64,000 bases of DNA from Nitrospirota bacterium (GCA_024275315.1 JAJRZK010000012.1:1869-65868); one strand, 5' to 3'. Numbered from the stretch's first letter, positions 34,434-60,601 are shown. A program made the numbers and translations. The notes: generated by a model not told the origin, from the letters alone.

Positions 34434-36254
34434 TTAAACGTTTTGTTGTGCGGAGCCTGGTGACCCGGCGATATGCAGAGTTTCGGTGACCACATCGTCG
34501 TTCTTCGGAAACCCCTCGCACTCCAGAAAGATACGCTCCCCGCACCTGGCGCAGATGGACATGTCCAGACGCTCCGTAATCGATTTTATCGCCTCGACTT
34601 TCGAGCAAAAGATATTCTTTTTTCCGATCTTCTCCAGGTAGGAGCTGTTGCGCAAAATCCTGATCACCTCTTCTTTTACACCACAAAAGAAAAGGCCGCC
34701 CCCCTTCTCCTGTCGTCGTCTGGCTTCGTGCAACAGCGCCTGGGCCCCGGCCACGTCGATAAAATTGACACCGCTGCACACCATCAGCACGTTGATCTGG
34801 CCCGGGTCCTCCTCGTCGATTCGTTGTAAAACCTCATCGACGTGGTTGACCGACCCGAAATAGATGGACCCGTCGACCCGGATGATTTTAAGTTGTGGAC
34901 ATTCGGGCAGGTCCGGATCAGTGTAGAAGGGCCGCCCCGGCTGGGTGGGGTGGGGCACGCGGCTTACGATGCGCGGTTTCGAGGTTCGGTTCAGGTAGAG
35001 GGCCAGGGAAAGCATTATACCAACGTAGATGGCGAATTCCAGCTCCACGAAGAGAGTCGAAAGGAATGTCACGATCAGGACCGCGGCCTCGCTCTGGCTT
35101 GTTTTCAGTATCACCCTGATATGGTGGAGGTCGATCAGGTTGTACGCGACAAGCAACACGATCCCCCCCATGGCCGGAATGGGCAGATATGCCGCAAGTG
35201 GCGCCACCATCAGCAAAATAGCCGCCAGCGACCCCGCGGCGAATATGGCGGCCATGGGTGTTTTGGCGCCACTTTCGTAGTTCAGCCCGCTCCTGGTAAA
35301 CGAGCCGGAGGAAGAGTAGCATGAAACAAAGCTCCCCACCACGTTAGCCAGTCCCTGTCCGATAAACTCCTGGTTGCCGTCTATGCGCTGGCGTGATTTC
35401 GTGGCGATCGATCGGGCGATGGAGACCGCCTCTATGAGACCCAGCATCGCCACCGCCAGCGCTCCGGATGTCATCTCCCTTATGGCCGCTGCGGAAAAAT
35501 CGGGAACTGACAGGGGCGGAAGAGACGCAGGCAGCGACCCCACCAGCTTGATGTTATGAGCCTCGGCGCCGAAAACCGACGCCACAACACTGCCGGCTAA
35601 TATGCCCAAAAGCATTGCGGGCCATTTTTGTCTGAAACGCTTTATAACGATAGCCGTAACAAGCGTGATCATCGAGACAGCAAGGACCGCCGGGTTGGTC
35701 GCTCCCAAATTGCCGGCGATATCTATCCATGTGTGGACAAACGAAGCCCCGGAGGATACGGAGATCCCCAAAACGTGTTTGATCTGGCTTGTGGCTATCA
35801 GAATGGCCGCGCCAGCCGTGAAGCCTACTACTACGGAGTGGGATATGAAATTGACCAGGGTTCCCATCCTGGCGATCCCGAGACCCAGCTGAATCAGCCC
35901 GGAGAGAAAGGTAAGTGTGAACGCCAGCGATACAAACTCTGCGCTACCGGCTTGGGCGTACGGTGAAATAGTGCTGAAGACAACTATGGAAATGGCGGTT
36001 GTCGGGCCGGAGATAAGGTGGCGCGAGGAGCCGAACAGCCCGGCCATGATCGGGGGGACGATGGCGGTGTACAGGCCATAGACCGGAGGAAGACCGGCTA
36101 TCATGGCAAAAGCCACCCCTTGGGGCAAAACCACCACGGCGTTGGTCAGTCCTGCGAAAAAATCGGCCTTGATAGTCTCCCGGTTGACGCTGGGCATCCA
36201 CAAAAGGAAAGGCGCCCAGGCGCTGATGTGTTGTCTCTTTTTCAATATGGGCAT
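34434..36254 (-). CDS. SulP-family anion transporter with C-terminal STAS domain
   Basis: 606 aa. The N-terminus D..AG.T.A.V..PQ..A.A..AGLPP.YGLY, multiple TM segments, and a STAS-like C-terminus. Confidence 0.9.
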   Translation of the reverse strand: MPILKKRQHISAWAPFLLWMPSVNRETIKADFFAGLTNAVVVLPQGVAFAMIAGLPPVYGLYTAIVPPIMAGLFGSSRHLISGPTTAISIVVFSTISPYAQAGSAEFVSLAFTLTFLSGLIQLGLGIARMGTLVNFISHSVVVGFTAGAAILIATSQIKHVLGISVSSGASFVHTWIDIAGNLGATNPAVLAVSMITLVTAIVIKRFRQKWPAMLLGILAGSVVASVFGAEAHNIKLVGSLPASLPPLSVPDFSAAAIREMTSGALAVAMLGLIEAVSIARSIATKSRQRIDGNQEFIGQGLANVVGSFVSCYSSSGSFTRSGLNYESGAKTPMAAIFAAGSLAAILLMVAPLAAYLPIPAMGGIVLLVAYNLIDLHHIRVILKTSQSEAAVLIVTFLSTLFVELEFAIYVGIMLSLALYLNRTSKPRIVSRVPHPTQPGRPFYTDPDLPECPQLKIIRVDGSIYFGSVNHVDEVLQRIDEEDPGQINVLMVCSGVNFIDVAGAQALLHEARRRQEKGGGLFFCGVKEEVIRILRNSSYLEKIGKKNIFCSKVEAIKSITERLDMSICARCGERIFLECEGFPKNDDVVTETLHIAGSPGSAQQNV

Positions 36255-39436: not shown

Positions 39437-42400
39437 TCAGTTCAACCTCCAGTTTTTCTCTATACGGCTGATCTCTTCTTCCAGCGATTCGTGGCTTATA
39501 TGAGCTTCCCGTAAAAGCTTTTCGCGCAGGCGTTTGACATAGCGCTGTTTTTCTTCATGGAACGATTTTTCCAGCTCCGCTTTTTTGTTCATGATTTCAG
39601 AAATAAGCTCCTGACGGAGTTTGTACTCCTCGGTTTTTATCTCCATGTTCAGCAGATCGAGCTTTTTCCTTTTTTCCACCTCGATCTCCCTGGTCAGAGC
39701 CTCCAGCCGGTTCTTTTCCTCTTTTTCCATTTCAGCGTCAAGCAGTTTGATACGGTCGGCCTGCGCGGTGGCAAGCTCGGCGTCGAGCTCGTCCCGTTTT
39801 CTGGCGACCTGGGCTTCGACACCGGCCAGCATTTTTTGAAGCTCTGCGCTTCTGGAGCGCTCCAGCTCAGACCTGTATTCCCGCTCGATTCTCATCTTTT
39901 CAAATTTCGATTCGCTTTGGGCCTGTTTGATTATCTGTTCGGCTTCATAAGAGACGGAATCCTCCATCTTGCGGCGGCGCCGGTCCCGCTCGATCTGCAG
40001 TTCCATGGTCATCTTTTCCCTTAACTCCAGGCGCAACCGCTCTGTTTCATATTGCACCCATTCCTTTTGCCGCTCCCAAAGCTGTTCCCGCCTCTGCTCC
40101 ATCTGCTTGCTCGCGGCCGCCTCGGCTTTTTCGTTTTCCTGCTTGATTTTTTCGAACAGGATCGCCTTCTCCTCGGCGATCTCTATGGCCAGCTGGCGTT
40201 TCAGGTCTATCCGCTCTGTCTCGATTTCCTGCTCGATTCCGGCCCGGCGCACGGCTTTTTCCTCGGATAGTTTCGCCATCATCTCGCGTGTTTTTTCCTC
40301 TCGCTCCCTGGCGATCTCCTCTCTCGCTTCCGCGGCCATTTTCTCTCTTTGGATGGCCATGTCCCTGCGTATGCTGTGGATCAGCTCGGATCGCTTCATG
40401 TTCAGCTCGTTTTTCAGGGCTTCTATGGCTTTTGTTTTTTCTTTTTTCAGCTTTTCGTGGATCAGCTCAAGCGCGCTTTGTCTCTTCGCCTCCATCCTGT
40501 TTTCCAGCAGGGCGTTTAGGGTCTCCTCCTCTTCGGCTATGCGAGCCCTGGCGGCGGATAACAGCCTTTCTCTTTCCTCGCTTTCCAGTCGCCGGTTTTT
40601 TTCGACGCTCTGTTTTCGCATGAGGTCCATCTCCGCGGCGAGCCTGGCCTGTTCATCATGTTTTTGCGCCTCGATCTGGTTGCGCATCTCCATCTCCTGG
40701 TGGATGATCCTGGGGCGCATCTCGGCCTTGAGCTCGGCCTGGATTTCCCTGCGTTCCACCTCCAATTGCCCGATCAGGCGTTTTCGGGCCGCCTCTTCCT
40801 CGGCGATTATCCGATCTGTCATCTGGTCGCGCAGTATCTTTTCTTCGTTGGCGATAGATGTTTCCAGATGCGCAATGCGCTGGTTACGATCCTTCGCGAC
40901 CTCTTCTTTGACCTTTTTAATGAGGCCGGCCTTGTATTGCTCCACCTGCGCCCGGGTCTTTTCGAGCCATTTGCTGCGCGCGCTGGCAAGCTCCTGCTCC
41001 ATCGATTCATTCAGCGCAGACCGTCTCCTGTCGATTTCATCGGCCAGGGATTTTATGCGTTCTTGTTTCTCCGCCGCGAGGGCGTTGTCGAACGCTTTGA
41101 GCTTTTCTGCGCGAATGGCGCTGATCTCGTTTTCCAGCGACATGAGCAATTCACGTTTTTCCGCGTCAACCCGCTCCCTGGTTTCCGCGCAGAGCTTTTC
41201 ATAGAGTTTGCGCGATTCTATCTTGGCCGCCTGTACCTGGCCGGACTTGTAACTGATAATCTGTTTTTGGGCTTCATATTTCAGGTCGTCGTATTCAAGC
41301 TCTATCTTTCTTTTTTCTTTTTTAGCGTACTTGGACAACGCGCTGGTGATCTTGGCTTTTTTGGACTCCATATCCCGCTTGAGCGCGGCGTTGGTTCTGG
41401 TTTTCGCTTTTTTTGCAAAGACGGCCAGTTCGCGTTCATGCCGGGCGATTCGCTCCTTTTTTTCCGCGGCGAGGGTGTCAATCAATTCCTTGGTTTTGGC
41501 CTGGCGTGTCATGTCCAGCTCTTTGTTCATCGAAGCGATGATCCGTTGCGCCTCGAAGTCCTGTTTCTTTTCCAGGATCGATTTCATGCGCTTGCTCTGG
41601 AGCTCGTGTTCCGTGTCGAAATGTGATGTCAGGAGCATCACTTCACGGTATATGTCATCCATGAGCATCTGCCGTCTGGCGTCGATCTCTACTTTTACTT
41701 CGGATTTTAGTAGCGACCGCAGTTTGTTTATTTCACTGCGTACCATATCCTTTTCAGTTTCGTGGAAGCGACTGATCTCCTCTTTTATGGAGTTGATTTT
41801 TTTCTCCCGATCCTCTTCGAGCTCCTGCCAGACCATTTCGCGGATATTTCCCATTTCCTTGTTGGCGCTGGCGCGCATCTCGTAGCGACGCCGCTCGGAG
41901 ATTTCCTCTATGGATTGCTCCAGTCTCTCCATCATTTTGCTTCTGGCCTGCTCGATCTCTTCGTCAACCTGTTTTTGACGCTCCGCTTTTTGCTCCTCAA
42001 GTTCCTGGTTCATCCTGGAGTTTTCAAGATCGCGCAAGGAGGCGATATCCCTTTCCATGTTGTCCAGTTTCTGGCGTTCAATTCTGCGCAGGCTTTCCTC
42101 TATCTGGCTGGTGCGGGTGCTCTCATAATTCGCCGCTTCGGCCTCCGCCTGGTCCATCAGGATTTTGCGTTCTTTCTCCACTTCCTCGATGATCCGGCCC
42201 AGTTCCGCTTCGCGTTCCACCTGGAGCTTGTTTTCTATTTCCAGTTCGCGTTCCCGGACCAGCGTCTCCAACTCCGTTTCGACCCTGGCCCGAAGCTCGC
42301 GTTTTTCAGATTCTATCTCTTCGTCGATATGGGCGCGGCGCGTGGCGCGATATTCCATCAGCCCGGATTCGATGTGTCCGATCTGCGCCTGTTTAGTCTC

Positions 42401-43489
42401 TTCTATCCGCTCGCGAAGTTTTAACAGCGCGTTTTTGTGGATTGTTATCCCGTCCAGACCGGAGACGCTTTTCGATACGTTTCTGTACGCTTCGGCAAGG
42501 GGCGATTCCGGGTCGAGCATTGTTGCCGGGACCTTGTCCAGAGTGGATCGGACCAATGCGTCGTCTTTCGGGATAAAACCTGCGTAATGAACCGGAAATC
42601 CCGTTATATTCTCCAGCGTTTTTTTTGTTTCCGGTCCGAAATCGAGGTCATCGAAGGTTTCGGCCTTGTTCACCAGCAGGTGTAGCAAAGGTTTTCCTTT
42701 TCGCAGATAATCGATTTTTCTCAACAGCGCGGGGTCGTCCCCACAGCTATCGCCAAGCTCGTCCAGTAGTGATTCGTTATCGACGCCAAAGGGATGGCCG
42801 CTTCGCAGTCTGGCCGCTCTGTCCTTGATTTTCCGCGTCTTGCGGAACTCCGTTTCGACCGCCCGGGTGGCGAGGTTCAGGGCGAGAGACCTGGTGTGCT
42901 TTACGGTCGACCTGTCCGGCTCCAGAACCAGCATGGAAACATCCGCCTCGAGCAGGTAATCCAGCTTTATATGGTCCGAGACAAGGCCAAGATCGAGGAC
43001 CACGAATTCCGTGTTGAGGTTGGAGAATTTTTTTACAAGGTTTTTTTTGAGCCGCTGGGTCCTGTCTGTAAAATTGTAATATTCAATACCGCTCTCCATG
43101 AGCGCGAGGTTGCTGTACCGGGTGGGGATCATCGCCTTGTTAAGGGTTTTTATCTTTCCGGAAAGATAGTCCCGGATCGTATGGGTTCCCTCGCCTGTAT
43201 CAATTTGGTCTCTTAACGGTTTCGACCCGAAAGCAAGATCCACCAGCAATGTTTTCCTGCCGGCAAGGGCGAGAATCGATGCGATATTCGCCGCGGTTAC
43301 AGATTTCCCGCCACCGCCCGATATGCCTGTGACAGCGATTGTTTTTACAACTGTTCCGGGAACGGTCGCCCCCGGCTCCTGGCAAATAACGGAATAAAGG
43401 TCACTTCCATCATTTTCCTTGCCACCTGCGCTGGTATCTGCCGCCATGACGCAATACCCCCAATATTCAGTAGACCCACCATAAACCAT
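39437..43489 (-). CDS. MinD/ParA-like P-loop NTPase fused to a ~1000-aa coiled-coil region
   Basis: 1350-aa ORF. The N-terminal ~330 aa carry KTIAVTGISGGGGKSVTAANIA...LLVDL, FVVLDLG, MLVLEPD and a MinD/FlhG-like FIPKDDALV...P segment. The remainder is an uninterrupted E/R/K/L/A-rich heptad-like sequence. The likely true start is ATG at complement(43445..43447), preceded by GGGGG. Confidence 0.8.
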   Translation of the reverse strand: MVYGGSTEYWGYCVMAADTSAGGKENDGSDLYSVICQEPGATVPGTVVKTIAVTGISGGGGKSVTAANIASILALAGRKTLLVDLAFGSKPLRDQIDTGEGTHTIRDYLSGKIKTLNKAMIPTRYSNLALMESGIEYYNFTDRTQRLKKNLVKKFSNLNTEFVVLDLGLVSDHIKLDYLLEADVSMLVLEPDRSTVKHTRSLALNLATRAVETEFRKTRKIKDRAARLRSGHPFGVDNESLLDELGDSCGDDPALLRKIDYLRKGKPLLHLLVNKAETFDDLDFGPETKKTLENITGFPVHYAGFIPKDDALVRSTLDKVPATMLDPESPLAEAYRNVSKSVSGLDGITIHKNALLKLRERIEETKQAQIGHIESGLMEYRATRRAHIDEEIESEKRELRARVETELETLVRERELEIENKLQVEREAELGRIIEEVEKERKILMDQAEAEAANYESTRTSQIEESLRRIERQKLDNMERDIASLRDLENSRMNQELEEQKAERQKQVDEEIEQARSKMMERLEQSIEEISERRRYEMRASANKEMGNIREMVWQELEEDREKKINSIKEEISRFHETEKDMVRSEINKLRSLLKSEVKVEIDARRQMLMDDIYREVMLLTSHFDTEHELQSKRMKSILEKKQDFEAQRIIASMNKELDMTRQAKTKELIDTLAAEKKERIARHERELAVFAKKAKTRTNAALKRDMESKKAKITSALSKYAKKEKRKIELEYDDLKYEAQKQIISYKSGQVQAAKIESRKLYEKLCAETRERVDAEKRELLMSLENEISAIRAEKLKAFDNALAAEKQERIKSLADEIDRRRSALNESMEQELASARSKWLEKTRAQVEQYKAGLIKKVKEEVAKDRNQRIAHLETSIANEEKILRDQMTDRIIAEEEAARKRLIGQLEVERREIQAELKAEMRPRIIHQEMEMRNQIEAQKHDEQARLAAEMDLMRKQSVEKNRRLESEERERLLSAARARIAEEEETLNALLENRMEAKRQSALELIHEKLKKEKTKAIEALKNELNMKRSELIHSIRRDMAIQREKMAAEAREEIAREREEKTREMMAKLSEEKAVRRAGIEQEIETERIDLKRQLAIEIAEEKAILFEKIKQENEKAEAAASKQMEQRREQLWERQKEWVQYETERLRLELREKMTMELQIERDRRRRKMEDSVSYEAEQIIKQAQSESKFEKMRIEREYRSELERSRSAELQKMLAGVEAQVARKRDELDAELATAQADRIKLLDAEMEKEEKNRLEALTREIEVEKRKKLDLLNMEIKTEEYKLRQELISEIMNKKAELEKSFHEEKQRYVKRLREKLLREAHISHESLEEEISRIEKNWRLN

Positions 43490-43524
43490 TTCATTATAAT
43501 GGGTTATATCGCATGTGTCAACAA

Positions 43525-43558
43525 ACAGGATTAAACTCCCGTTTACAGGATTGAAACT
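43525..43558. promoter_or_regulatory. two 13-bp direct repeats ACAGGATT(A/G)AACT spaced 20 bp
   Basis: 43525-43537 and 43545-43558, lying 35-70 nt upstream of the ParA-like gene in the 475-nt divergent spacer. Confidence 0.3.
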
Positions 43559-43976
43559 TTATATAACATATCAACCCTGCTGATCCCCCTGGACCCGATT
43601 GCGCCTATTGCCATGACCGACTCTGCGGGAGATGTTACCCTCGACAGCCGCTCCGGCAGCCTGTCGGCGTATATTTTTAACAACCAGATAGAGGTTGTGT
43701 TTCGTGGAAAAACTGAGAGGACTGGCAACAATCAACCCCGGTATTGCCGGGGGCGCACACCCATGCGGATATTTATCGACGATCTGGATTAATATCAGCG
43801 GTTTGTCGTTAAAAATGAACTGGAAGAAACCTGAACTGTATAGTAATCTTAAAATATTAGACCGGAAGGCCGGTTGTAAGCGCAATATTGTTCGAAATAT
43901 CTTAACCGAGAAGATATATGCCATGCCTTCAGGTGTCATGTCATGCTTTAGTTAAATATACCAGGTGCTTCATAAT

Positions 43977-45779
43977 ATGCGACGTTTTGTGGTCGGTTTG
44001 TCCATGCCGGTTATTGTTGCGCTTTTACTCATATTTGTTGCCCCTCCATACGCTCACTGCATGACGGCAACCAAAAATCCAAACGATGTCTACTCGCAGG
44101 TAATGATTCTCCGGGATCAGGTGATAGCTCTCCGGAAGAATTCCGGCGTCAAGGACAAATTCCCCTCTATTAAAAAACAGGAATGCAAAGCGCCGCGCCA
44201 CGTTTTGCAAAAGGCGATGGAAGTGCTGGACAAAATAAACAGGTTGCGGCGAATAAGAAATATGGGGGCGATAACCGTCCCCCCATATCCATCACGCGAA
44301 ATAAGCCCAAACGAAGTTTATGGTATGGTCAGGCGGCTCGTGGGCGAGATGCAGCTTTTTCTTCCGGGCGACAAACCGGCCGCTCCAAAGACTTTCAGCG
44401 GAAAAACGCCCAACGACGTTTATCGTGAGTTGTGGGGCATATCCCGCGCTCTCGATCCTGTGCTGGGCATACGCGGCCTGATGCCGGCCGATGTTTATAA
44501 TAAAAGCCTCGAAGCGCTGGAGACAATACGCTTCCTGCGACTATCGCAGAACAAGCCTTACATACATATTAAAAAGCCGGAACGCACCGAAGGAAACCAT
44601 CCCAACCACAGCCTCAAAATGGTTTACAATCTGCTGGGTAAAATAGCCGTGGCGGAGAGGAACCTCTGGATTGAGCCCATAACCCTCCCGAAAGTTTCTA
44701 TGCGTGTAATAGAGCCGCAGGAGGTTTACGACGCGCTTAACATCGTCATAGCCGAACTGCAAAGAATAAAATATCGCCTGGGGCTGGAGCGTTACATAAA
44801 AACGCCTGAAACGCAGGGGGAAAAAACACCGGACGACGTGGTGCAGATTCTGAAATACGCCATTGCGACAATGCCCGATTTTTCCAACAAACCTCTCATC
44901 CAGTACAACCCGGCTCATCTCGCCAAAACTCCTGACCATGTGTTTGCGGTAGCCGAGCATATCTTAGAAGAACTCAAGGCATACAAAAACTATCGTGGCA
45001 TAAAGGCCCCTTCCAGGAAACCTCCCGAGCAGGTTGGCCTGGAACCGCAACATGTTTTTGGCAAAACCCTTGAGAACCTGGACAAGGTAAGCCGGCTGAG
45101 GAGGCAGGTAGGTTTCGGCGAGCTGGTGGTTCCGGAGTTTCCTTTAAGGCGGGTAACGCCAACCGAAGTGTACGACATGGCTATTCGGTTGGATGCGGAG
45201 ATAGGCATCATTTACGACGCGGTTGGGATGAGTTCTGTCCTGTTTTACGAAACTGTGGGGCAGCCCGAATTTACTGGTAAAACCTCCTCGGACGTATTTG
45301 AAAAAATGTGGGAGATATCATTTTTGCTGGATACGATTATCGGTTCGGAGGGTTATACTCCATCGGATGTTTATGTTCAGGCCTTGCAGGTTGTGAGCGA
45401 AATAGAGCTTATAGCCAAGCGGGTCAAAAAGGGGATCCAGAAAATAGAGCCACCTTTAAGTAAGGGGAAAAGGCCGTCCGACGTAATTGTGATGGCGAGG
45501 AATGTGCGCAAACTGCTTAAGATGGCGAAGAAACACGCCGGCATGTTTGAACCTGCGGCGATACAGGAACCGACGTCTATCGTATCGGGCCGCATATCGC
45601 CAGACGACGTGTTTAACGAGGTGGGGCTGATTTTCGCCGAAATAGTGGAGCTTAAAATACATCTCGGCATTGCCGAAACAACGAAACTTCCCATAAAAGC
45701 TGAAGGCAAAACCCCTTCGGACGTGTACCAACAGCTTGAATCCGCGCAGGCGATGCTGGAAGGGATTCTGGATATATAA
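43977..45779 (+). CDS. secreted repeat protein: 16 x ~38-aa helical repeats with a P-x-[DE]-V-[YF] motif (no family recognised)
   Basis: Signal peptide MRRFVVGLSMPVIVALLLIFVAPPYAHC. The motif proline (or its equivalent) sits at track residues 39, 77, 115, 149, 174, 213, 251, 289, 323, 361, 399, 441, 466, 504, 546 and 584. The track start GTG 43965 is the alternative. Confidence 0.75.
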   Translation: MRRFVVGLSMPVIVALLLIFVAPPYAHCMTATKNPNDVYSQVMILRDQVIALRKNSGVKDKFPSIKKQECKAPRHVLQKAMEVLDKINRLRRIRNMGAITVPPYPSREISPNEVYGMVRRLVGEMQLFLPGDKPAAPKTFSGKTPNDVYRELWGISRALDPVLGIRGLMPADVYNKSLEALETIRFLRLSQNKPYIHIKKPERTEGNHPNHSLKMVYNLLGKIAVAERNLWIEPITLPKVSMRVIEPQEVYDALNIVIAELQRIKYRLGLERYIKTPETQGEKTPDDVVQILKYAIATMPDFSNKPLIQYNPAHLAKTPDHVFAVAEHILEELKAYKNYRGIKAPSRKPPEQVGLEPQHVFGKTLENLDKVSRLRRQVGFGELVVPEFPLRRVTPTEVYDMAIRLDAEIGIIYDAVGMSSVLFYETVGQPEFTGKTSSDVFEKMWEISFLLDTIIGSEGYTPSDVYVQALQVVSEIELIAKRVKKGIQKIEPPLSKGKRPSDVIVMARNVRKLLKMAKKHAGMFEPAAIQEPTSIVSGRISPDDVFNEVGLIFAEIVELKIHLGIAETTKLPIKAEGKTPSDVYQQLESAQAMLEGILDI

Positions 45780-45782
45780 CAA

Positions 45783-47600
45783 ATGAACCTTTCAATTACC
45801 CTGAAAATGGGGCTTTTGACGATGTTGTGCTCCTGTATTGGAGTCCTGAGCGTTAGTTTTTTTGCGTTAAGGGACGCAGGCAAACTGCTTCAGCAACAGT
45901 CGATTGGAAATATTTCGAACGATCTGCTTCGGGAAAGCGACCTTCTCGAGGAAAAGCTACGCATACTGCGCCAGGACGTGCTGTTTTTAAACAAAGCCCC
46001 TCCTGTGTCCGGTATCATCCGGGCTTCAAAAACCGGCGGGTACGACCCCGACCAGAACACCACCGGCAGGGCCTGGGAACAACGGCTTTCTGATATATTC
46101 ACAAACGTTTTGAGACAACGCGGGTCATATTTCCAGATACGCTTTATAGGTGTGGCCGATAACGGGAAAGAGCTTGTGCGGGTAGAGCGCAAAGAGGGCC
46201 GAATATCCGCCAAGAAAAAAGAAGCGTTGCAACGAAAGGGAGATAGATATTATTTCCGTGAAATCATAAAACTGTCTCCCGGCGAAGTCTATTATTCAAA
46301 AATCGACCTGAACGTGGAAGGTGGGGAAATAGAGGAGCCGTACCGTACCACGATACGAGCCGGATCGCCGGTATACGATGAGGCGACCGGCGATGTTTTC
46401 GGGATCGTGGTAATAAACGCCGATTTTAATAAAATGGCGGCCGGATTGCTGTCTCCCCCAAACAACACGTTCTATTTTTTGGCGAATAACGACGGCGAAT
46501 ACCTGATACATCCCAACAGGAAAAAACGGTACGCTCTCATGTTCGACCGCACCGCCAAATATACGAACGATTATCCGTTAACAAAGGAAAATCTTGAGAA
46601 ATTGCACCGGGGTGGTTTTGAAGCCATAGACCTGCCCGAACAAAGCGCAGGGGTGGTTTTGCGCCACTCCCATTTCGATCCATCCAGTCCTGATCGTTTT
46701 CTTGCAATAGGAGCCGTGGTCGATCACTCCGTTATCGAGGCCACAACGATGAACCTGCAACATAGGCTGATTGCGATAGCTTTTTTTGTGGCTCTACTGC
46801 TTGGCGCAATTGTGGCTTTCGGGGTGAGCGTTCTTACAAGACCCATAAACAAGCTGAAAAAAGCGGTCGATCTCATAAGCGAGGGGCGTGAAGATGTCGA
46901 AATACCGCACCTGGGGAATGACGAGATAGGCAAATTCGCCGATTCAATGCGCGATATGCTGAAGAAGAAAGCGTCATCGCAAAAGGCGCTGAAAGAACTG
47001 GCCGGGTCGCTGGAAGAGCAGGTGAAGGAACGCACCCAGAAACTGCGCAAGTCGGAGCAACATATCAGAACAATAGTAAAAACCGTTGGGGAGGGGATAG
47101 TAGTTGTTGATTCGGGTTCGCGGATACTGCTTGTCAACGAGGAGATATCGAGCATATTCGGATATTCCGAAGATGAGCTTCTGGGGAAAAATATCAGGGT
47201 GCTGATGCCGGAAAAGTACCGCGCCGACTATGAAGACGGAATAAGAAATTACCTGGGTATGGGAAAGGTTGCGGCGCCGGGGAAAAGGATGGAGCTGGAG
47301 GGACTGCGCAAAAACGGAACCGTTTTCCCTATAGAACTGAGAGTGGAAGAAACCGCAGGTGATGGGGAAGAGAGGTTGTTCACCGGATCAATAAGGGACA
47401 TCACCGAGCGTAAGAAGGGGGAGGAGGAACTGAAGAAAGTTCACGCCGATTTGATAGAAAGAAACAAGCGCCTTGAGAGGTTCCACAAAATTACCGTCGA
47501 CAGAGAGATGGAAATGATCAAACTGAAAAAAGAGGTGAACGCTCTTCTCAAGGAGGCTGGCAGGGCGGGGAAATATGAAATCCGGTTAGGGAAAATATGA
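45783..47600 (+). CDS. membrane sensor: periplasmic Cache-like region + HAMP + PAS + coiled coil, with no transmitter domain
   Basis: TM1 (LLTMLCSCIGVLSVSFFAL), a ~290-aa periplasmic region, TM2 (LIAIAFFVALLLGAIVAFGVSVL), HAMP (RPINKLKKAVDLISEG...IGKFADSMRDML) and PAS (VGEGIVVVDS...GSIRDITERKK). It ends without an H-box. The start lies 3 nt after the upstream stop. Confidence 0.8.
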   Translation: MNLSITLKMGLLTMLCSCIGVLSVSFFALRDAGKLLQQQSIGNISNDLLRESDLLEEKLRILRQDVLFLNKAPPVSGIIRASKTGGYDPDQNTTGRAWEQRLSDIFTNVLRQRGSYFQIRFIGVADNGKELVRVERKEGRISAKKKEALQRKGDRYYFREIIKLSPGEVYYSKIDLNVEGGEIEEPYRTTIRAGSPVYDEATGDVFGIVVINADFNKMAAGLLSPPNNTFYFLANNDGEYLIHPNRKKRYALMFDRTAKYTNDYPLTKENLEKLHRGGFEAIDLPEQSAGVVLRHSHFDPSSPDRFLAIGAVVDHSVIEATTMNLQHRLIAIAFFVALLLGAIVAFGVSVLTRPINKLKKAVDLISEGREDVEIPHLGNDEIGKFADSMRDMLKKKASSQKALKELAGSLEEQVKERTQKLRKSEQHIRTIVKTVGEGIVVVDSGSRILLVNEEISSIFGYSEDELLGKNIRVLMPEKYRADYEDGIRNYLGMGKVAAPGKRMELEGLRKNGTVFPIELRVEETAGDGEERLFTGSIRDITERKKGEEELKKVHADLIERNKRLERFHKITVDREMEMIKLKKEVNALLKEAGRAGKYEIRLGKI

Positions 47601-49183
47601 AAATCATCGTTATAGATCAAAACGACAAGGTGATAGGTAAAATCCATGGATATTTCAGAAGGCTCCACTTTGAATATTACGACAAAACTCACACTATGGA
47701 GTTTCACGGGGTTGGTTCGGGCCGGGCGGCCCTGGAGCGGATAATCAGTGATTACCAGCAAGAAGCTCCGTGTGATCTTATCATAACCACCCGGGATACA
47801 GGCGATCTTTCCGGCCTGGAGCTTGGTAAAAGGCTGATGGCCCTTGAAATCGCGCCTGCGGTTCCGATTGTCCTGTATGTCGACGACCCGGAGAAATTCC
47901 TGAAAGACAAAGATGTGGGAAGTGAAATTACTCTTTGTTGCAAGCCTTTCGACAGCTATGAATCTTGTGAGAAGATTATGGAAAAAGTGTGCGCGGTCCT
48001 TATATCGCGGGAGGTGGAATCCAGGATAGAAAAAGTCGACGCTCTGATGGAAAAACAGGGCACAGATGACTTCATCGCAACCCTGGAAAACTATTATATG
48101 CACTCCGCCAGGAATATCAGCGTTTACAAATCCTACGCCCCCTGGTCCGAGTTGCCCTATAAAAGCCTGGCGGATATCTATATCGGATCCAATAAACATC
48201 GTGATGCGATTCCGTATTTAAAGACCGCTCTGAAAATAAATTATCATAATTACGAAACCCATAAAAACCTGGCGCTTTGCTACAGGAAAATCGGTTTGTC
48301 TTTCGAGGAGCTCGAAGAGCTTAGAACCACCTTGTGTAAATTTCCCCATTCATCTCCAACGCTGTTGAAGATCGGGGAGGCGTTGCTTCGTGAAGGGGAC
48401 TATCTGAGCGCCGCCGAGCATTTTAAGCAGGCGATAGCCTTCCATAAACCCGCCGACACCTATCGACTGAAGGCCCGCTCCCACGTGGGCCTCGGAAAAG
48501 CCTATATGGCCGATGGTGACGAGAACAACGATTCATCGAAGCACGAAATGGCGAAGGACGAATTCAAAAACGCGGTGCACGTCGACCCGATGCTGTTGGC
48601 CGCGTATAACAACCTGATCATCGTTTATAACAAGCTGGGGATGGTCGAGGAAGCGGCTGAGACGATGGCGCGAGCCGTGAAGCTGTTGCCAGATGATTCC
48701 GACGGATGGCTGAACCTGTTTGAGATTTATCTTCGCGAGGGCGAAGAGAGAAAAGCGAAACACGCTCTTCGAAAAATCATACGTTCGGAACCGGAAAACC
48801 AGATAATACTCTGCACGGCCGCCGAAACCTACATGCGCCAGGAGATGTTCTCTGACGCGATCGAGCTTTTCAAAAACGCGCTGAAGGTAAATCCTTCCGG
48901 TATCCGTATTCACAATTTCATGGGTATATGCTTCAGGCGGCTTGGCGAGTATGAGGAGGCGATTTCCCATTATCGCAAGGCGCTCCAGATAGACCCTTCC
49001 GATTGCAACATCCACTTCAACCTCGGCCAGGCGTACTGGAGCGCGAAGAAGCTGGCTTCGGCTGAAAAATGTTTTAAAACCGCGGTCCAACTGGATCCGG
49101 AATTTGACGAAGCGAAAAAGGCGCTGTTGATGATTGCAGATCATCCAGACCCGGATGACAACCGAAGGGCGGGCATTCGCTGA
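47597..49183 (+). CDS. receiver-like (probable pseudo-receiver) domain fused to TPR repeats
   Basis: MKIIVIDQND... CDLIITTRDTGDLSG ... CCKPF follows the REC topology, but the phospho-acceptor position reads Thr by my manual alignment. The C-terminal ~330 aa carry TPR motifs. It overlaps the upstream stop by 4 nt (ATGA). Confidence 0.7.
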   Translation: MKIIVIDQNDKVIGKIHGYFRRLHFEYYDKTHTMEFHGVGSGRAALERIISDYQQEAPCDLIITTRDTGDLSGLELGKRLMALEIAPAVPIVLYVDDPEKFLKDKDVGSEITLCCKPFDSYESCEKIMEKVCAVLISREVESRIEKVDALMEKQGTDDFIATLENYYMHSARNISVYKSYAPWSELPYKSLADIYIGSNKHRDAIPYLKTALKINYHNYETHKNLALCYRKIGLSFEELEELRTTLCKFPHSSPTLLKIGEALLREGDYLSAAEHFKQAIAFHKPADTYRLKARSHVGLGKAYMADGDENNDSSKHEMAKDEFKNAVHVDPMLLAAYNNLIIVYNKLGMVEEAAETMARAVKLLPDDSDGWLNLFEIYLREGEERKAKHALRKIIRSEPENQIILCTAAETYMRQEMFSDAIELFKNALKVNPSGIRIHNFMGICFRRLGEYEEAISHYRKALQIDPSDCNIHFNLGQAYWSAKKLASAEKCFKTAVQLDPEFDEAKKALLMIADHPDPDDNRRAGIR

Positions 49184-49196
49184 AAAAGGGTAGCTG

Positions 49197-51812
49197 GTGA
49201 AAAACAATAAAGAAAAAGAAAAGTCGACAGGCGGGTATGGACGTCCTAATCCATTAAGTGTTTCCATTATTCTTGTAGTGATAATTTTCGCCTCCGAGGC
49301 GTTGCTCATGGCTTTTCTGTCCATCCTGCCCCCTTTGCCAGCGATGACGGCCACACTTATCGATTCCGTATTGCTTGTGGCGCTGATCGTTCCATTTATG
49401 TATTTCCTCATTTACCGCCCCATGGCAGAGCAGATCTCCAAACTCAGGAGTAAGGACGAAGAGCTTGGAGAAATGGCCATCTCCATCGAGGAAATCAAAA
49501 CCAGGTTCATCGAGTACGATCTGATATTGAGAACAACCTCCGAAAGCATTCTGCGAATAGATACGGAAGGAACGATCCACGCCATAAACGACGTCGGCGT
49601 CAGAATGTTCGGCTATGAAAACGGCGAGCTCGAGGGAAAGAACCTTTCGGTGATACTGCCTCACGACAGCCCCGAAGCGTTGCTTCGCGGTTACGAATTG
49701 TTTCTTGATGGCTGGGATGAGGCAGTGAGTCCGGAGCCGCACGCCATGGAAGGGCAGGCTCTTACCAGAGACGGCCGTAGCATACAGGTAGAGCTGTCAA
49801 TTTCCGACTGCATGATTGATTTAAAAACCTATTACATAATTATCATCCGAGAGATCACCAAGCGAAAACTCGTGGAAAACGCGCTACGGGAAAGTGAGGA
49901 AAAGTACCGCTCTCTGTTCGTGAACATGCTTTCCGGTTATACATATTGCAAAATGATATTCGACGAAAATAATCAGCCCGTTGACTGGATTTATCTGGAG
50001 GTTAACGACGCTTTTGAAAAGCTTACCGGGCTGAGCAGGAAAGATGTCGTAGGCAAAAGGGCGACCGATGCGATACCTGGCATTAAGAATTTCAAACCCG
50101 ATTTGTTTGAAATCTACGGCAAAGTCGCGGCAACCTGCGAAGGGACCAGCATCACCGTATTTTTCGACACCCTGGATCTCTGGTTAACCATCTCCCTGTA
50201 TTGTCCCCAAAAAGGTTATTTTGTCGCTGTATTTGAGGATATCACCGAGCGCAAACAGGCGGAAGAGACGCTTAAGAAAGCCAATGCAGAGCTTAAGCAG
50301 TCGCAGGCGGCCTACTTGAACATCATGGACGATTTCGAGAGGCAGAACAGGGAATTGCAGAAAAGCAGGGAAAGCCTCGCCAAGGCGCAGGAAATGGCTC
50401 AACTTGGGAACTGGGACTGGGACGTAGTAAGTGACGAAATGTACTGGTCCGGCCAGGTATACCGTATTTTCGGATATTTGCCGAAAGAGCTTATGGCGAC
50501 ATATGAAAACCTGATAAAAAGAGCGCACAAGGATGATACGGAGTTTGTCAAACATTCGTTTTTTCAGGCTCTTTTTGAAAAAAAAGAGCTGTCGATCGAT
50601 TATCGCGTTGTTCTGCCTGATGGAACAGAGAAGATAGTTCATTTGCAGGGGGAAGTCACCTTTAACGATAAAAACGAATCCATTCGACTGTTCGGGACAA
50701 TACAGGACATTACGGAGCGTAAGAAGAGTGAAGAAGTTCTCAAAAGGGCCAAGGAAGAGGCGGAAGAAGCGACTAGGCTGAAAGATAAATTCGTTAATCT
50801 TGTGGCGCATGATCTGCGTTCGCCGTTTGCGTCGATAACGGGGGCGCTAAAATTATTGAGCGATGATCCGGAGTTAAAGCTGAACCCCGATCAGCGTAAA
50901 CTGATAAATTCTGTTTTGAAAAGCGGTGACCGGATGGTCTCGATGATTGACGAAATGTTGGATATCAGCAGGCTCCAGACCGGGAAAATCCAGTTGAAAC
51001 CAAGGTTCTTCGACGGGCGAATGGTGGTTGGCGCGGTGTTGGGAAGCATTATCTTCAGAGCAGATGAAAAGGGTATCGAAGTCGTCAACGAGGTTCCCGA
51101 AGGCGCAAGATTACACGCAGACATAACGCTCTTTTCCGAGACGATATCCAACCTGGTTTCCAACGCGGTCAAGTTCTGTGACAAGGGCGATACCGTCACC
51201 CTGTTTATTCCGCCAGAGCGCCCCACTACTATCGCGGTAAAGGACACAGGCTCCGGCATCAAGGAGAGCATTTTACCTGACCTTTTCAAGAGCGAAGTGA
51301 AAACCACCACCGCTGGCTCTTCAGGTGAGCTTGGAACGGGTCTGGGGCTTCCCTATAGCTATGAGATAATGCAGGCGCATGGCGGGGACATCACTGTTGA
51401 GAGCGTGAAAGGGGAAGGGAGCGTATTCTACGTCGAATTGCCATATGTAAAACCGCGGGTTATGATCGTTGATGATGAAAAAGTCACTCGTCAGCTGTTA
51501 ACAGTATTTCTTGACGATCTGGATGTGGAGATCATCGAAGCCGAGAATGGTCGGGAGGCCCTCAAAGCGATTGAAGATCACCCCCCGCACGTGATCCTCA
51601 GCGATATCGAGATGCCGGTTATGGATGGCTTCGCTTTTCTTAAGGAAATCATGGGTAATGACAAAACGAATTCCATTCCGGTAATTATCGTCACTGGAAA
51701 CACGAAGATGAAAATTCGCGAGAAATTCATTTGGATGGGAGCGAGCGATTTCATCACAAAACCGATCAGGGAAGAAGAATTTATCCCTCGGATAAGGAGA
51801 TACATCATTTAA
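49197..51812 (+). CDS. hybrid sensor histidine kinase (2 TM + 3 PAS + HisKA + HATPase + REC)
   Basis: H-box FVNLVAHDLRSPF, N/G boxes (SNAVKF..., DTGSGI, GTGLGL), and a C-terminal receiver (VMIVDDEK...VILSDIEMPVMDG...KPI). GTG start preceded by AAAAAGGG. Confidence 0.9.
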   Translation: MKNNKEKEKSTGGYGRPNPLSVSIILVVIIFASEALLMAFLSILPPLPAMTATLIDSVLLVALIVPFMYFLIYRPMAEQISKLRSKDEELGEMAISIEEIKTRFIEYDLILRTTSESILRIDTEGTIHAINDVGVRMFGYENGELEGKNLSVILPHDSPEALLRGYELFLDGWDEAVSPEPHAMEGQALTRDGRSIQVELSISDCMIDLKTYYIIIIREITKRKLVENALRESEEKYRSLFVNMLSGYTYCKMIFDENNQPVDWIYLEVNDAFEKLTGLSRKDVVGKRATDAIPGIKNFKPDLFEIYGKVAATCEGTSITVFFDTLDLWLTISLYCPQKGYFVAVFEDITERKQAEETLKKANAELKQSQAAYLNIMDDFERQNRELQKSRESLAKAQEMAQLGNWDWDVVSDEMYWSGQVYRIFGYLPKELMATYENLIKRAHKDDTEFVKHSFFQALFEKKELSIDYRVVLPDGTEKIVHLQGEVTFNDKNESIRLFGTIQDITERKKSEEVLKRAKEEAEEATRLKDKFVNLVAHDLRSPFASITGALKLLSDDPELKLNPDQRKLINSVLKSGDRMVSMIDEMLDISRLQTGKIQLKPRFFDGRMVVGAVLGSIIFRADEKGIEVVNEVPEGARLHADITLFSETISNLVSNAVKFCDKGDTVTLFIPPERPTTIAVKDTGSGIKESILPDLFKSEVKTTTAGSSGELGTGLGLPYSYEIMQAHGGDITVESVKGEGSVFYVELPYVKPRVMIVDDEKVTRQLLTVFLDDLDVEIIEAENGREALKAIEDHPPHVILSDIEMPVMDGFAFLKEIMGNDKTNSIPVIIVTGNTKMKIREKFIWMGASDFITKPIREEEFIPRIRRYII

Positions 51813-58369: not shown

Positions 58370-60601
58370 ATGGAAAATGTGGAGATAGGAGTTGGCGGAA
58401 TGACATGCGCCTCCTGCGTGCGTAGGGTGGAAAACCACCTCAAAGGTGGTGATGGCGTGCTGGACGCTTCGGTGAACCTGGCGACAGAGTCGGCCACCAT
58501 CAGCTACGACCCGACAGCCATCGGATATGAAAAACTCAAGGAGCTTGTAACGGAGGCTGGATACAAACCCTATGACGTGCGAACCGATTCCGCGCAGGAG
58601 GATGTCGAGCGGCGCAGGGACGAGTTTCGCAAATCACTGGTCCGTTTCGTCGTATCCGCGTTATTGACCGCGCCCATTTTGATCATCTCCATGAAGGATA
58701 TGCTCGGAATACTTTCCGGGATACCCTCGCAGGTGGAGAAAGGGGCCCTGTTTGTTCTGACATCGCTGGTTATGTTCACTGTCGGCGCTCCTTTCATGAC
58801 CGGCGCGTGGAAAGCGTTCAGGAACCACGCGGCGGACATGAACACGTTGATAGCTGTCGGGACCCTGGCCGCATATTCCTATTCCACCGTGTCGGCGTTC
58901 GCGCCGGAGCTGATATCCACGTCGGGTGAAACGCCACCTGTCTATTTCGAGACCGCCGCCATGATAATCACCCTGATCCTTATGGGCAAATATCTGGAGG
59001 CGCGAGCCAAGGGGAAGGCGTCCGACGCCATATCAAAACTGATGGGACTGCGCCCGAAGACAGCCATGGTGATACGTGACGGGGAGCAGGTCCAGATCGA
59101 AATAGAAAAAGTGGTCGTGGGAGACCGGGTGGTCGTGCGCCCGGGGGAGTCTGTTCCCGTTGACGGCACGCTCGTCGACGGAGCCTCCTCCGTGGACGAG
59201 TCGATGATCACCGGGGAGTCCATCCCCGTGGAGAAACACGCGGGAGACAAGGTGGTGGGGGGCTCTGTAAACACCACCGGCTCTTTTACATTTACCGCGA
59301 CAGGAGTCGGGGCCCAGACCACGCTGGCCAGGATAGTGCGGATGGTTCGTCAGGCGCAGGGGAGCAAGGCTCCGGCCCAGAAGCTCGCGGATCTGGTGGC
59401 GTCATATTTCGTTCCGGCTGTGATGATCGTGGCGGTTGTAACGTTTGTCGTCTGGTATGATTTCGGCCCGGAACCGCGCCATGTGCACGCCCTGGTGAAC
59501 TTTGTCGCGGTGATGATAATCGCCTGTCCATGCGCGCTGGGGCTGGCCACTCCGACGGCGATAATGGTGAGCGCCGGAAAGGGGGCGCAATGCGGCGTAT
59601 TGATAAAAAATGGCGAGGCTCTGGAAAAGGCGGCGGTTATCGACACCATTATCCTGGACAAAACCGGAACCGTGACGACTGGTAAACCGTCTGTGGTCGA
59701 TGTGATCGTATCGGACGGATTCAGGCGTGACGACCTGATCTCACTCGCCGCCTCGGTGGAAAAACGGTCCGAACATCCGCTGGCAGAGGCGGTGGTGCGG
59801 TATGCCGGGGAGCAGGGGATTGACACCATGGATATCGATGGTTTTCAATCGGAGACCGGGTCTGGTGTCGAGGCTGTTGTGGATAGCGCCAGGATTCTGG
59901 TCGGGTCCGAAGGGTACATGTCCGGACAGGGCGTCGATGTGTCTGGTTTTGCCGGCGAGAGCGGCGGTATTTCCTCCAGGGGAATAACGCCTCTTTATGT
60001 GGCCAGGGATGGTGAGTGCGTTGGGGTGATAGGTGTGTCGGACACTGTCAAGCCAGGTATCGACAAAACCATCAGGCTGTTCAATACGATGGGACTGGAC
60101 GTGGTGATGATCACCGGAGACCACCAGGCCACAGCGGACGCCATAGCAAGGCAGGTGGGCATAAACAATGTGATCGCAGGCGCCAAACCGGAAGACAAGG
60201 CCAAAGAGGCCAGACGTCTGCAGAAAAAAGGGCGGGTTGTTGCCATGGTGGGAGACGGGATCAACGACGCTCCCGCCCTCGCGGCGGCCGATGTCGGGTT
60301 CGCCATAGGCGCGGGGACCGATATCGCCATGGAATCGGCCGAGATCACGCTGATGAAAGACAGTGTCGACGGGGTGGCGACGGCGATATCGCTGGGAAAA
60401 GCCACGTTAAGGACGATCAAGCAGAATCTTTTTTGGGCGTTCGCCTATAACACAGCCCTCATACCTGTTGCCGCGGGTGTGTTGTATCCCATATGGTCGG
60501 TGACCATGGACCCGATGTTCGCCGCGTTGGCGATGGCTTTTTCGTCGGTGACGGTTGTGACCAATTCGTTACGCTTGAAAACGTTCAGGGCGAATGTATG
60601 A
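58370..60601 (+). CDS. copA: copper-translocating P1B-type ATPase
   Basis: N-terminal HMA (GMTCASC), TGES, the CPC in a TM helix ([13 protein letters not shown]), DKTGTVT and GDGINDAP. Confidence 0.95.

Follow-up and report, generated by a model that had tools for sequence, protein, structure and literature searches.

The gene at 43977-45779 (+ strand) in a 64,000-nucleotide (nt) stretch of DNA from a Nitrospirota bacterium (GCA_024275315.1 JAJRZK010000012.1:1869-65868; the window hereafter) encodes a secreted protein of 600 amino acids (aa), predicted to be all-alpha and built of 16 helix units in two modules. We propose that this protein, here called the target, is probably a dedicated periplasmic co-receptor of the sensor encoded directly downstream, acting as LuxP does for LuxQ without being a solute-binding protein (SBP). 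It belongs to a large superfamily without a name, that of the periplasmic [ST]PxDVY helical-module proteins, with an apparently new fold. The gene is real and is not explained by its current annotation, and the main uncertainty concerns its function, not its existence. For most sensor kinases, diguanylate cyclases and chemoreceptors of bacteria, no signal is known yet. Among extracytoplasmic sensors those of the dCache type are the commonest, and the partners through which they are known to sense indirectly are nearly all SBPs.

Linkage to membrane sensors across genomes

Double-module homologues of the target were surveyed at 59 loci, with one genome per species, and 50 of these loci were informative, holding a full-length homologue and enough downstream DNA. 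In all 50 a homologue of the sensor's periplasmic domain was encoded directly downstream (E 1e-30 to 1e-128), and the two genes overlapped by 4 nt in 20 loci and by 11 nt in nine. An earlier note on this sequence, which had taken the protein for a possible periplasmic partner of the sensor, had asked whether the gene and its linkage are conserved in related genomes; they are, as the sensor follows in every informative locus. The same gene order was found in three metagenome loci, in Hydrogenimonas and in a symbiont of Escarpia. The linked loci come from about ten phyla (Campylobacterota, Gamma-, Alpha- and Zetaproteobacteria, Magnetococcales, Desulfobacterota, Nitrospirota, Planctomycetota and Aquificota). 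Among 49 partner sensors HAMP was present in 47, PF21623 in 43, HATPase in 41, HisKA in 32, REC in 22 and Hpt in 18, with GGDEF in six, EAL in three and PAS in a few, and the outputs of the receptors were a kinase, a hybrid kinase, GGDEF, GGDEF-EAL, or PAS only. The conserved unit is the periplasmic protein together with the periplasmic sensor domain, and the cytoplasmic outputs vary freely. Since the linkage is complete, codons of the two genes usually overlap and the arrangement holds across about ten phyla while the output domains are shuffled, the target is best read as a subunit of the input module.

Shorter relatives with a single module, described below, show a similar arrangement. A receptor was encoded directly downstream in 12 of the 14 informative single-module loci; in six of eight look-ups a dCache_1/PF21623 hybrid kinase came directly after the single-module gene, and the periplasmic domains of these partners match the same sensor hidden Markov model (HMM; E 1e-27 to 1e-45). 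In one single-module branch (L063-L067 and L076) the downstream gene encodes instead a HAMP-containing chemoreceptor (methyl-accepting chemotaxis protein, MCP). The periplasmic domains of these chemoreceptors are helical, ~200-250 aa long and homologous to one another (E 1e-11 to 1e-30), are unrelated to the dCache HMM and match no Pfam family; they may constitute a second unnamed family of ligand-binding domains. An exception to the linkage occurs in a Nitrospinaceae metagenome-assembled genome (MAG), where a truncated 257-aa copy (L060 5974-6747) is followed by a lone receiver gene.

The third gene was classified in 41 loci. It carries REC in 36 of them and GGDEF, arranged as REC-(PAS)-GGDEF, in 26, and no DNA-binding (helix-turn-helix) family was found among the adjacent downstream genes of these loci. 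Because the third gene is usually REC-GGDEF, no DNA-binding output was seen among these genes and some of the partners are MCPs, the pathways appear to feed mainly cyclic di-GMP (c-di-GMP) or chemotaxis, i.e., behaviour.

These observations also bear on the possibility that the target is merely co-transcribed and has no part in signalling. It might then be a scaffold or another structural protein of the periplasm, might bind a polymer such as an anionic component of the envelope or matrix, or might be an enzyme with a product to which the sensor responds. Such a role would suit a strongly basic protein (average net charge +13.5) that has a large repetitive helical surface in its model, single-module relatives without an adjacent receptor (L062, L077), and a c-di-GMP output of the kind tied to matrix and biofilm control. 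We nevertheless hold it to be quite improbable: linkage in 50/50 loci with overlapping codons, over about ten phyla and with freely shuffled sensor outputs, is not expected of a bystander, the partner is kept even where a chemoreceptor, with another kind of periplasmic domain, takes the place of the sensor, and the target shows neither a catalytic motif nor a match to an enzyme family in Pfam or NCBIfam.

Two features of individual loci were recorded in the same survey. At two loci only, from a symbiont and a member of the Sedimenticolaceae, a PBP_like_2/SBP_bac_11 gene (L003 13784-14542; L017 9708-10466) lies after a sensor ending in GGDEF and is followed by an MCP gene; these families are of the phosphate or molybdate/sulfate type, and an oxyanion-related cue is possible there. 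The sensor of a Phycisphaerales MAG (L012 7842-9668) has an insertion of ~135 residues, helical in appearance, in the middle of its dCache-like domain, which is absent from all the other partner sensors.

Architecture, predicted fold and extent of the superfamily

The open reading frame at the target locus, 43965-45779 (+), opens with GTG. The better start is the ATG at 43977: 9 nt ahead of it stands AGGTG (43963-43967, +), a Shine-Dalgarno sequence read from the DNA, and the homologues open at the corresponding position. Residues 1-28 (MRRFVVGLSMPVIVALLLIFVAPPYAHC; 43977-44060, +) comprise a positively charged n-region and then a hydrophobic h-region, and the N-terminus is a classical signal peptidase I (SPase-I) signal peptide, with AxA-type equivalents throughout the family; the confidence of the AlphaFold2 model (predicted local distance difference test, pLDDT) is low at residues 25-29. 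A secreted protein with a signal peptide was what the earlier note had described. Lipobox-like sequences were found in 1/60 double-module and 0/61 single-module members, so the family does not consist of lipoproteins. Given the SPase-I signal peptide and the near absence of lipobox-like sequences, the target is predicted to be a soluble periplasmic protein.

The mature protein is made of 16 helix units of ~38 aa each, capped by [ST]-P-x-[DE]-V-[YF]. The pattern [PS]x[DEH][VS][YFVIL] occurs 16 times in the target as against 0.47 +/- 0.67 times (at most 4) in 5000 shuffled sequences, and the 16 motif instances and 15 proline spacings reported in the earlier note were all reproduced. So was the super-repeat it had seen between residues 70-190 and 355-475, with a Smith-Waterman score of 208 vs 26.6 +/- 4.7 for shuffled sequences (z = 39). 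The duplication in fact spans the whole mature protein, as residues 29-315 aligned to 316-600 score 322 vs 35 +/- 5 (z = 56). When slices of the family alignment were compared by hhalign, the four quarters of four units each (residues 30-166, 167-315, 316-458 and 459-600; Q1 to Q4) proved to be all mutually homologous (probability 99.5-100%, E 1e-22 to 4e-48), the closest pairs being Q1 with Q3 and Q2 with Q4. Duplication had therefore been recognised correctly, but there are three levels (quarter, module and protein) and not the two first described. As all quarters are homologous and pair in this way, the sequences point to a history in which a 4-helix quarter gave rise to an 8-helix module and this in turn to the 16-helix protein. 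Plain self-BLASTP of the target returned the identity match alone, with no off-diagonal match; since the copies escape it and are detected only by shuffle-calibrated or profile methods, they must be old and divergent.

Module 1 (residues 29-315, units 1-8; 44061-44921, +) is the conserved half and consists of Q1 (44064-44474) and Q2 (44475-44921). Module 2 (residues 316-600, units 9-16; 44922-45776, +), the divergent half, consists of Q3 (44922-45350) and Q4 (45351-45776).

An AlphaFold2 model of the target, built on a 60-sequence alignment, has a pLDDT of 92.5, a predicted template-modelling score (pTM) of 0.90 and 16 helices. The helices are ~20 residues long and each begins exactly at a motif proline, for which reason we take [ST]-P-x-[DE] to be an N-cap. 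After each helix comes a non-helical linker of ~17 residues in which Lys, Pro and Gly abound, and the non-helical, K/P/G-rich share of the mature residues amounts to 42%. Tight hairpins are found in the model only at 163/170, the Q1/Q2 boundary, and at 455/462, the Q3/Q4 boundary. Judging from linker lengths only, the helices would run parallel within a quarter, joined by overhand linkers, and flip direction at the two short hairpins. Helix packing was also sought by mean-field direct coupling analysis of module-level alignments (546 and then 317 sequences, with effective numbers of 458 and 267), where the signal was swamped by gap and hub-column artefacts. The single-module relative P0298 gave a model of the same quality (pLDDT 92.4, pTM 0.89, 8 helices); because it folds equally well alone, the ~285-aa module can be regarded as a structural domain.

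No named family was recognised in the earlier note, and the searches bear this out. A Pfam scan of the target returned 0 families at E <= 1 and NCBIfam nothing meaningful; PDB sequences queried with the target, by single sequence and by profile, gave no match; and Foldseek searches with the models of the target and P0298 had best E values of 0.69 and 2.2 in PDB and 0.31 in BFVD, with template-modelling scores (TM) <= 0.19. The fold is thus apparently new, the models having no detectable relative in PDB or BFVD.

The earlier note had named TPR, Sel1 and HEAT variants as families that would account for the protein, and had suggested that the model be inspected for an alpha-solenoid. A divergent member of a known helical repeat family (TPR, Sel1, HEAT/ARM or pentapeptide-like), serving as a generic interaction scaffold, would explain the regular ~38-aa helical units, and the operon does contain a gene for a true TPR protein. 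This explanation is scarcely credible, however. The Pfam search that detected TPR_1 in that neighbour at E 7e-42 found no TPR, Sel1 or HEAT-ARM match, nor any other, in the target at E <= 1, and the PDB profile search and Foldseek (TM <= 0.19 for both models) were equally empty, an alpha-solenoid match included. The shape of the unit differs as well, one ~20-residue helix with a ~17-residue linker taking the place of the antiparallel helix-turn-helix pair that defines TPR, Sel1 and HEAT repeats.

Three further candidates were rejected. Membership of the CpxP/Spy/ZraP group is contradicted by a sequence without LTXXQ, without a Pfam or NCBIfam match to the group and without a structural match. 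The SBPs (LuxP/TorT/SBP_bac) are set apart by an all-alpha model lacking any beta-sheet and by the absence of an SBP family match. The precomputed label PF22748 (PexRD54_WY, an oomycete effector family) on the homologue P0107 is a chance match over 16 residues, scoring 26.6 bits where the cut-off is 27; it could mislead automated annotation. Faint Foldseek echoes of long-chain four-helix-bundle cytokines such as growth hormone and thrombopoietin were not significant (E 4.8-6.1, TM 0.14-0.27). In these proteins, as presumably in the target, helices are joined by long non-helical overhand connections, but the cytokines are eukaryotic, have 4 helices where the target module has 8, and share no sequence relationship with it; we consider the likeness a weak one, a resemblance only.

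The superfamily proved to be extensive. A word-index search gave 229 homologues of the target at E <= 1e-3, and the 120 of them that were listed are 38-59% identical to it and mostly ~600 aa long, every named one being annotated as "hypothetical". An HMM run exhaustively against 1.84 billion cluster representatives matched 1204 clusters (50% identity) at E <= 1e-3, of which about 60 are full-length. Among the other matches listed, most are proteins of ~300 aa with a signal peptide of their own, which match one half of the double-module profile, and a search with a single-module profile added 550 further clusters. Full-text searches of the literature turned up no description of the family. The carriers are overwhelmingly marine, and many come from chemical gradients. 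Among those that can be cultivated are Oceanospirillum beijerinckii DSM 7166, O. multiglobuliferum ATCC 33336, Hydrogenimonas thermophila and Sulfurimonas isolates. They include Sulfurimonas, Hydrogenimonas and Sulfurospirillum (Campylobacterota); Oceanospirillum, Neptuniibacter, Marinobacterium, Sedimenticola, Thiotrichaceae and the symbionts of tubeworms and clams (Gammaproteobacteria); and Magnetococcales, Zetaproteobacteria, Rhodospirillales, Desulfobacterota, Nitrospirota, Nitrospinota, Phycisphaerales, Persephonella and SAR324.

Conservation is concentrated in the first module. In the 60-sequence alignment of the double-module form there are 20 invariant residues (H75, K79, E82, R91, G97, R107, E124, Y149, P170, Q191, N210, H211, L230, D252, A259, E260, R267, P300, F302 and Q309), all of them in module 1, and several fall in the atypical units with PRHV and HPNHSL. 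The mean pairwise distance is 0.54 for module 1 vs 0.68 for module 2, and conservation fades toward units 13-16, where there are almost no conserved residues. The helix of unit 2 (residues 72-92, APRHVLQKAMEVLDKINRLRR; 44190-44252, +) is the most conserved element of the superfamily, with P73, R74, H75, Q78, K79, E82, L84, K86, I87 and R91 each present in >= 90% of members. P-x-H-V...K is nearly invariant also in diverse single-module proteins, making the P-R-H-V-x-Q-K helix a hallmark of the superfamily. Its members combine an SPase-I signal peptide, either a single ~285-aa module or two, each with 8 helices that open with [ST]-P-x-[DE]-V-[YF] caps, and a second helix with P-R-[HN]-V-x-Q-K, a combination that the target shows in full.

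A proposed co-receptor role and its rivals

Receptors with dCache-like domains often have a neighbouring periplasmic partner that drives them, as in LuxP/LuxQ, CBP/ChiS, NspS/MbaA, ScrB/ScrC and HptA/HptS (PMC8050422). In this class, as with the target, the gene of a soluble periplasmic protein adjoins, usually on the upstream side, that of a transmembrane receptor with a bimodular dCache-like domain, and the receptor outputs include hybrid kinases and GGDEF/EAL proteins. It is the partner and not the Cache domain that perceives the signal (PMC8050422). The partners of the LuxP-LuxQ class have the alpha/beta fold of periplasmic binding proteins and match SBP families in Pfam, whereas the target is all-alpha in its model and has no SBP or fold match; many SBP partners also serve a transporter, and no transporter is linked to the target loci. 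Accessory proteins other than SBPs that control a membrane signalling enzyme from the periplasm are known as well. PruR of Agrobacterium, a pterin-binding protein, controls the dual GGDEF-EAL enzyme DcpA (PMC11194511), and QseG is paired with QseE (PMC12691602). The output of the PruR-DcpA pair is c-di-GMP, as in the target systems, but the folds of PruR and QseG are unrelated to that of the target, neither has a repeat architecture, and the target is not a lipoprotein. PruR is SUOX-like, and QseG a lipoprotein of the outer membrane. As a concept, the periplasmic co-sensor is established, unlike this protein family, its fold and the extent of its distribution.

By analogy with these systems, the target would form a stoichiometric periplasmic complex with the extracytoplasmic domain of the sensor. 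The stimulus would be met by the invariant polar residues of module 1 (H75, K79, E82, R91, R107, E124, Y149, N210, H211, D252, E260 and R267), and module 2 would probably dock on the receptor and make the receptor-specific contact. This division of labour is suggested by the faster evolution of module 2 and by the way its divergence tracks that of the sensor domain: in mirror-tree comparisons of 50 pairs, the Spearman correlation with the sensor's periplasmic domain was 0.70 for module 2 vs 0.45 for module 1. In LuxP-LuxQ and TorT-TorS signalling proceeds through a change in the symmetry of the complex (PMC8050422). Because kinases and chemoreceptors are homodimers, the target, a fused pseudo-dimer, could likewise span the sensor homodimer in an asymmetric fashion and, in the manner of LuxP acting on LuxQ, alter its symmetry to switch it.

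The principal alternative is that the target resembles CpxP of CpxP-CpxA or ExoR of ExoR-ExoS, that is, an inhibitor or stress-sensing accessory protein that binds the sensor constitutively and holds it off (or on) until misfolded envelope proteins, proteolysis or a redox change titrates or degrades it, with no defined small ligand. The same synteny and translational coupling would fit this model equally. CpxP, which modulates its sensor kinase by direct contact with the periplasmic domain, is like the target a helical protein of the periplasm, and the target shares with it an all-helical, basic and soluble character (PMC4160245). CpxP, Spy, ZraP and the Sel1-repeat inhibitor ExoR are all small to medium helical periplasmic proteins that act on a sensor kinase by touching its periplasmic domain; ligand-related neighbours were not found near the target loci examined, and the long exposed linkers (42% of mature residues, K/P/G-rich) would make good protease targets. 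Several differences lead us to regard this alternative as unlikely, though it is the most serious of the rivals. The known proteins carry LTXXQ or a Sel1 repeat, which the target lacks, and it matches neither CpxP/Spy nor Sel1 by sequence or, in Foldseek comparisons, by fold. They act on non-Cache sensors, without translational coupling, and within envelope-stress regulons, while the target systems have c-di-GMP and chemotaxis as outputs, not envelope repair. The gene cpxP is regulated by its own system and is not translationally coupled to the kinase gene, which also weighs against the model. Finally, 20 invariant, mostly polar residues confined to one module fit a specific binding site better than an unspecific sensor of stress.

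The target might also be a periplasmic chaperone devoted to the sensor, helping its dCache-like domain to fold, insert or remain stable, and thus needed for assembly and not for sensing. Overlapping genes imply stoichiometric co-translation, and the divergence of the target tracks that of the sensor domain, both of which such a factor would explain. But dCache domains fold unaided in many solved structures (2P7J/3LID, for example), the same partner family serves the structurally different helical domain of the MCPs, and a protein of 600 aa, with its polar site so well conserved, is larger than a private chaperone would need to be. This explanation therefore seems very improbable to us, still more so than a non-signalling role.

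Several observations weigh against the co-receptor proposal itself. Two single-module genes are found away from a receptor: one in a Rhodospirillaceae MAG (L062 5899-6849) has no adjacent receptor and lies among molybdenum-cofactor and housekeeping genes, and at a second locus (L077) the kinase is two genes away. In one single-module subgroup the His of unit 2 is replaced by Asn. The mirror-tree signal is weak, as over the 50 pairs the correlation of the whole target with the sensor's periplasmic domain (r = 0.80) is slightly above the phylogenetic background given by HAMP (0.71). The target is basic (mean isoelectric point 9.1, mean net charge +13.5) and the sensor domain roughly neutral, and no charge complementarity between the two was seen; their charges correlate positively, as a shared proteome bias would give. 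The conserved polar residues may be buried salt bridges and not a binding site. Among the neighbouring genes at the loci examined there is no transporter or enzyme, the flanking genes are of housekeeping type, and no riboswitch was found in the window, so that the surroundings offer no clue to a ligand.

Taking the co-receptor proposal further, we put forward with some reserve a joint reading, in which these proteins would be a new class of periplasmic co-receptor with an 8-helix fold absent from PDB. They would bind an environmental cue at the invariant His/Lys/Glu/Arg site and inform dCache-type kinases, diguanylate cyclases and chemoreceptors, thus providing a shared attach-or-swim input for marine chemolithotrophs that live for the most part in gradients (Sulfurimonas, Hydrogenimonas, Persephonella, Zetaproteobacteria, Magnetococcales and the tubeworm and clam symbionts). 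The 600-aa form would be a pseudo-dimer that imposes asymmetry. If true, this would add a new input module to the bacterial signalling toolkit, spanning at least 1200 clusters at 50% identity and about ten phyla, and would explain the control of a set of orphan receptors in ecologically important organisms that are hard to approach genetically, such as the sulfur, iron and hydrogen oxidisers of vents and sediments and the symbionts of animals. The cassette of three genes (partner, kinase and REC-GGDEF) is compact enough for heterologous reconstitution. The three-level duplication offers a clean case of the growth of a repeat protein in which one copy retains the putative functional site.

The operon in the window

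The sensor gene (45783-47600, +) opens 3 nt past the target stop codon, in the same frame, and the target is the first gene of a tight operon, as the earlier note had inferred. Its description of the second gene as a Cache-type sensor was right as to the periplasmic Cache-like domain and can be refined: the protein has a first transmembrane segment, a double-PDC/dCache-like PF21623 domain, a second transmembrane segment, HAMP, PAS and a coiled coil, and it lacks a kinase domain of its own. PF21623 was matched at E 3e-15 (56.5 bits, cut-off 27) and HAMP at 28.7 bits (cut-off 25), and the periplasmic domain (residues ~32-322) is a distant homologue of the solved double-PDC domain of VP0354 from V. 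parahaemolyticus (2P7J/3LID; E 4e-6). Conserved residues of its membrane-distal PDC lobe are R80, Y87, D88, N92 and T94, and a word-index search for homologues of the sensor yielded 11. The third gene (47597-49183, +), which overlaps the sensor stop by 4 nt, encodes a 528-aa TPR protein (TPR_1, E 7e-42), and the fourth (49197-51812, +) a hybrid histidine kinase with a transmembrane segment, three PAS domains, HisKA, HATPase and REC. The junctions of the four genes are thus +3, -4 and +13 nt.

The closest relative, a Nitrospirae MAG (L004; target 54% identical), has a single sensor of 1034 aa (L004 7690-10794) with the order PF21623-HAMP-PAS-PAS-HisKA-HATPase-REC. The 605-aa sensor of the window corresponds to residues 1-548 of the L004 protein (42% identity), and the C-terminal ~470 aa of the window hybrid kinase match the kinase and receiver part of that protein (E 1e-121). 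Because the one sensor of the relative corresponds to both the window sensor and the C-terminus of a separate kinase, the window holds a split version of the system, and sequence similarity marks the hybrid kinase at 49197-51812 as the likely kinase output of the split sensor. Relative to L004, the window kinase gene has gained an additional N-terminus with a transmembrane segment and two PAS domains, and the TPR gene stands between sensor and kinase. In the window the signal would then pass from the kinase-less sensor to the hybrid kinase two genes downstream, possibly via the TPR protein. The N-terminal ~100 residues of the TPR protein resemble a degenerate receiver, the first 178 aa giving a sub-threshold match to Response_reg (E 0.044). 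Its MamA-like, PilW-like and PrsT-like scores in NCBIfam all lie below the cut-offs. A magnetosome link was rejected, as the MamA score is 101 against a cut-off of 200 bits and the family is common in non-magnetotactic taxa.

Upstream of the target, a divergent intergenic region of 487 nt (43490-43976) contains the operon leader. Weak sigma-70-like sites are present on its + strand at 43471-43500 and 43542-43569, and an Rfam scan of the 487 nt found no riboswitch and nothing at E <= 1 except a chance match to a miRNA. A perfect TTGACA-17-TATAAT promoter on the - strand (43521-43493) serves the divergent gene at 39437-43489 (-). This gene encodes a protein of 1350 aa whose N-terminus is a ParA/MinD-type P-loop ATPase (AAA_31, CbiA; residues ~47-240) and whose remaining ~1000 residues are a predicted coiled coil very rich in E, K and R, which produces the strongest AT-skew excursion of the window (-0.47 at 40-42 kb). 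Other genes of the window, among them those at 27177-28739, 34434-36254 and 58370-60601, provide an ordinary chromosomal context, with a 520-aa Hpt-domain protein, a SulP/STAS transporter of the sulfate-permease family, MoaA-like radical-SAM genes and a heavy-metal P-type ATPase with an HMA domain.

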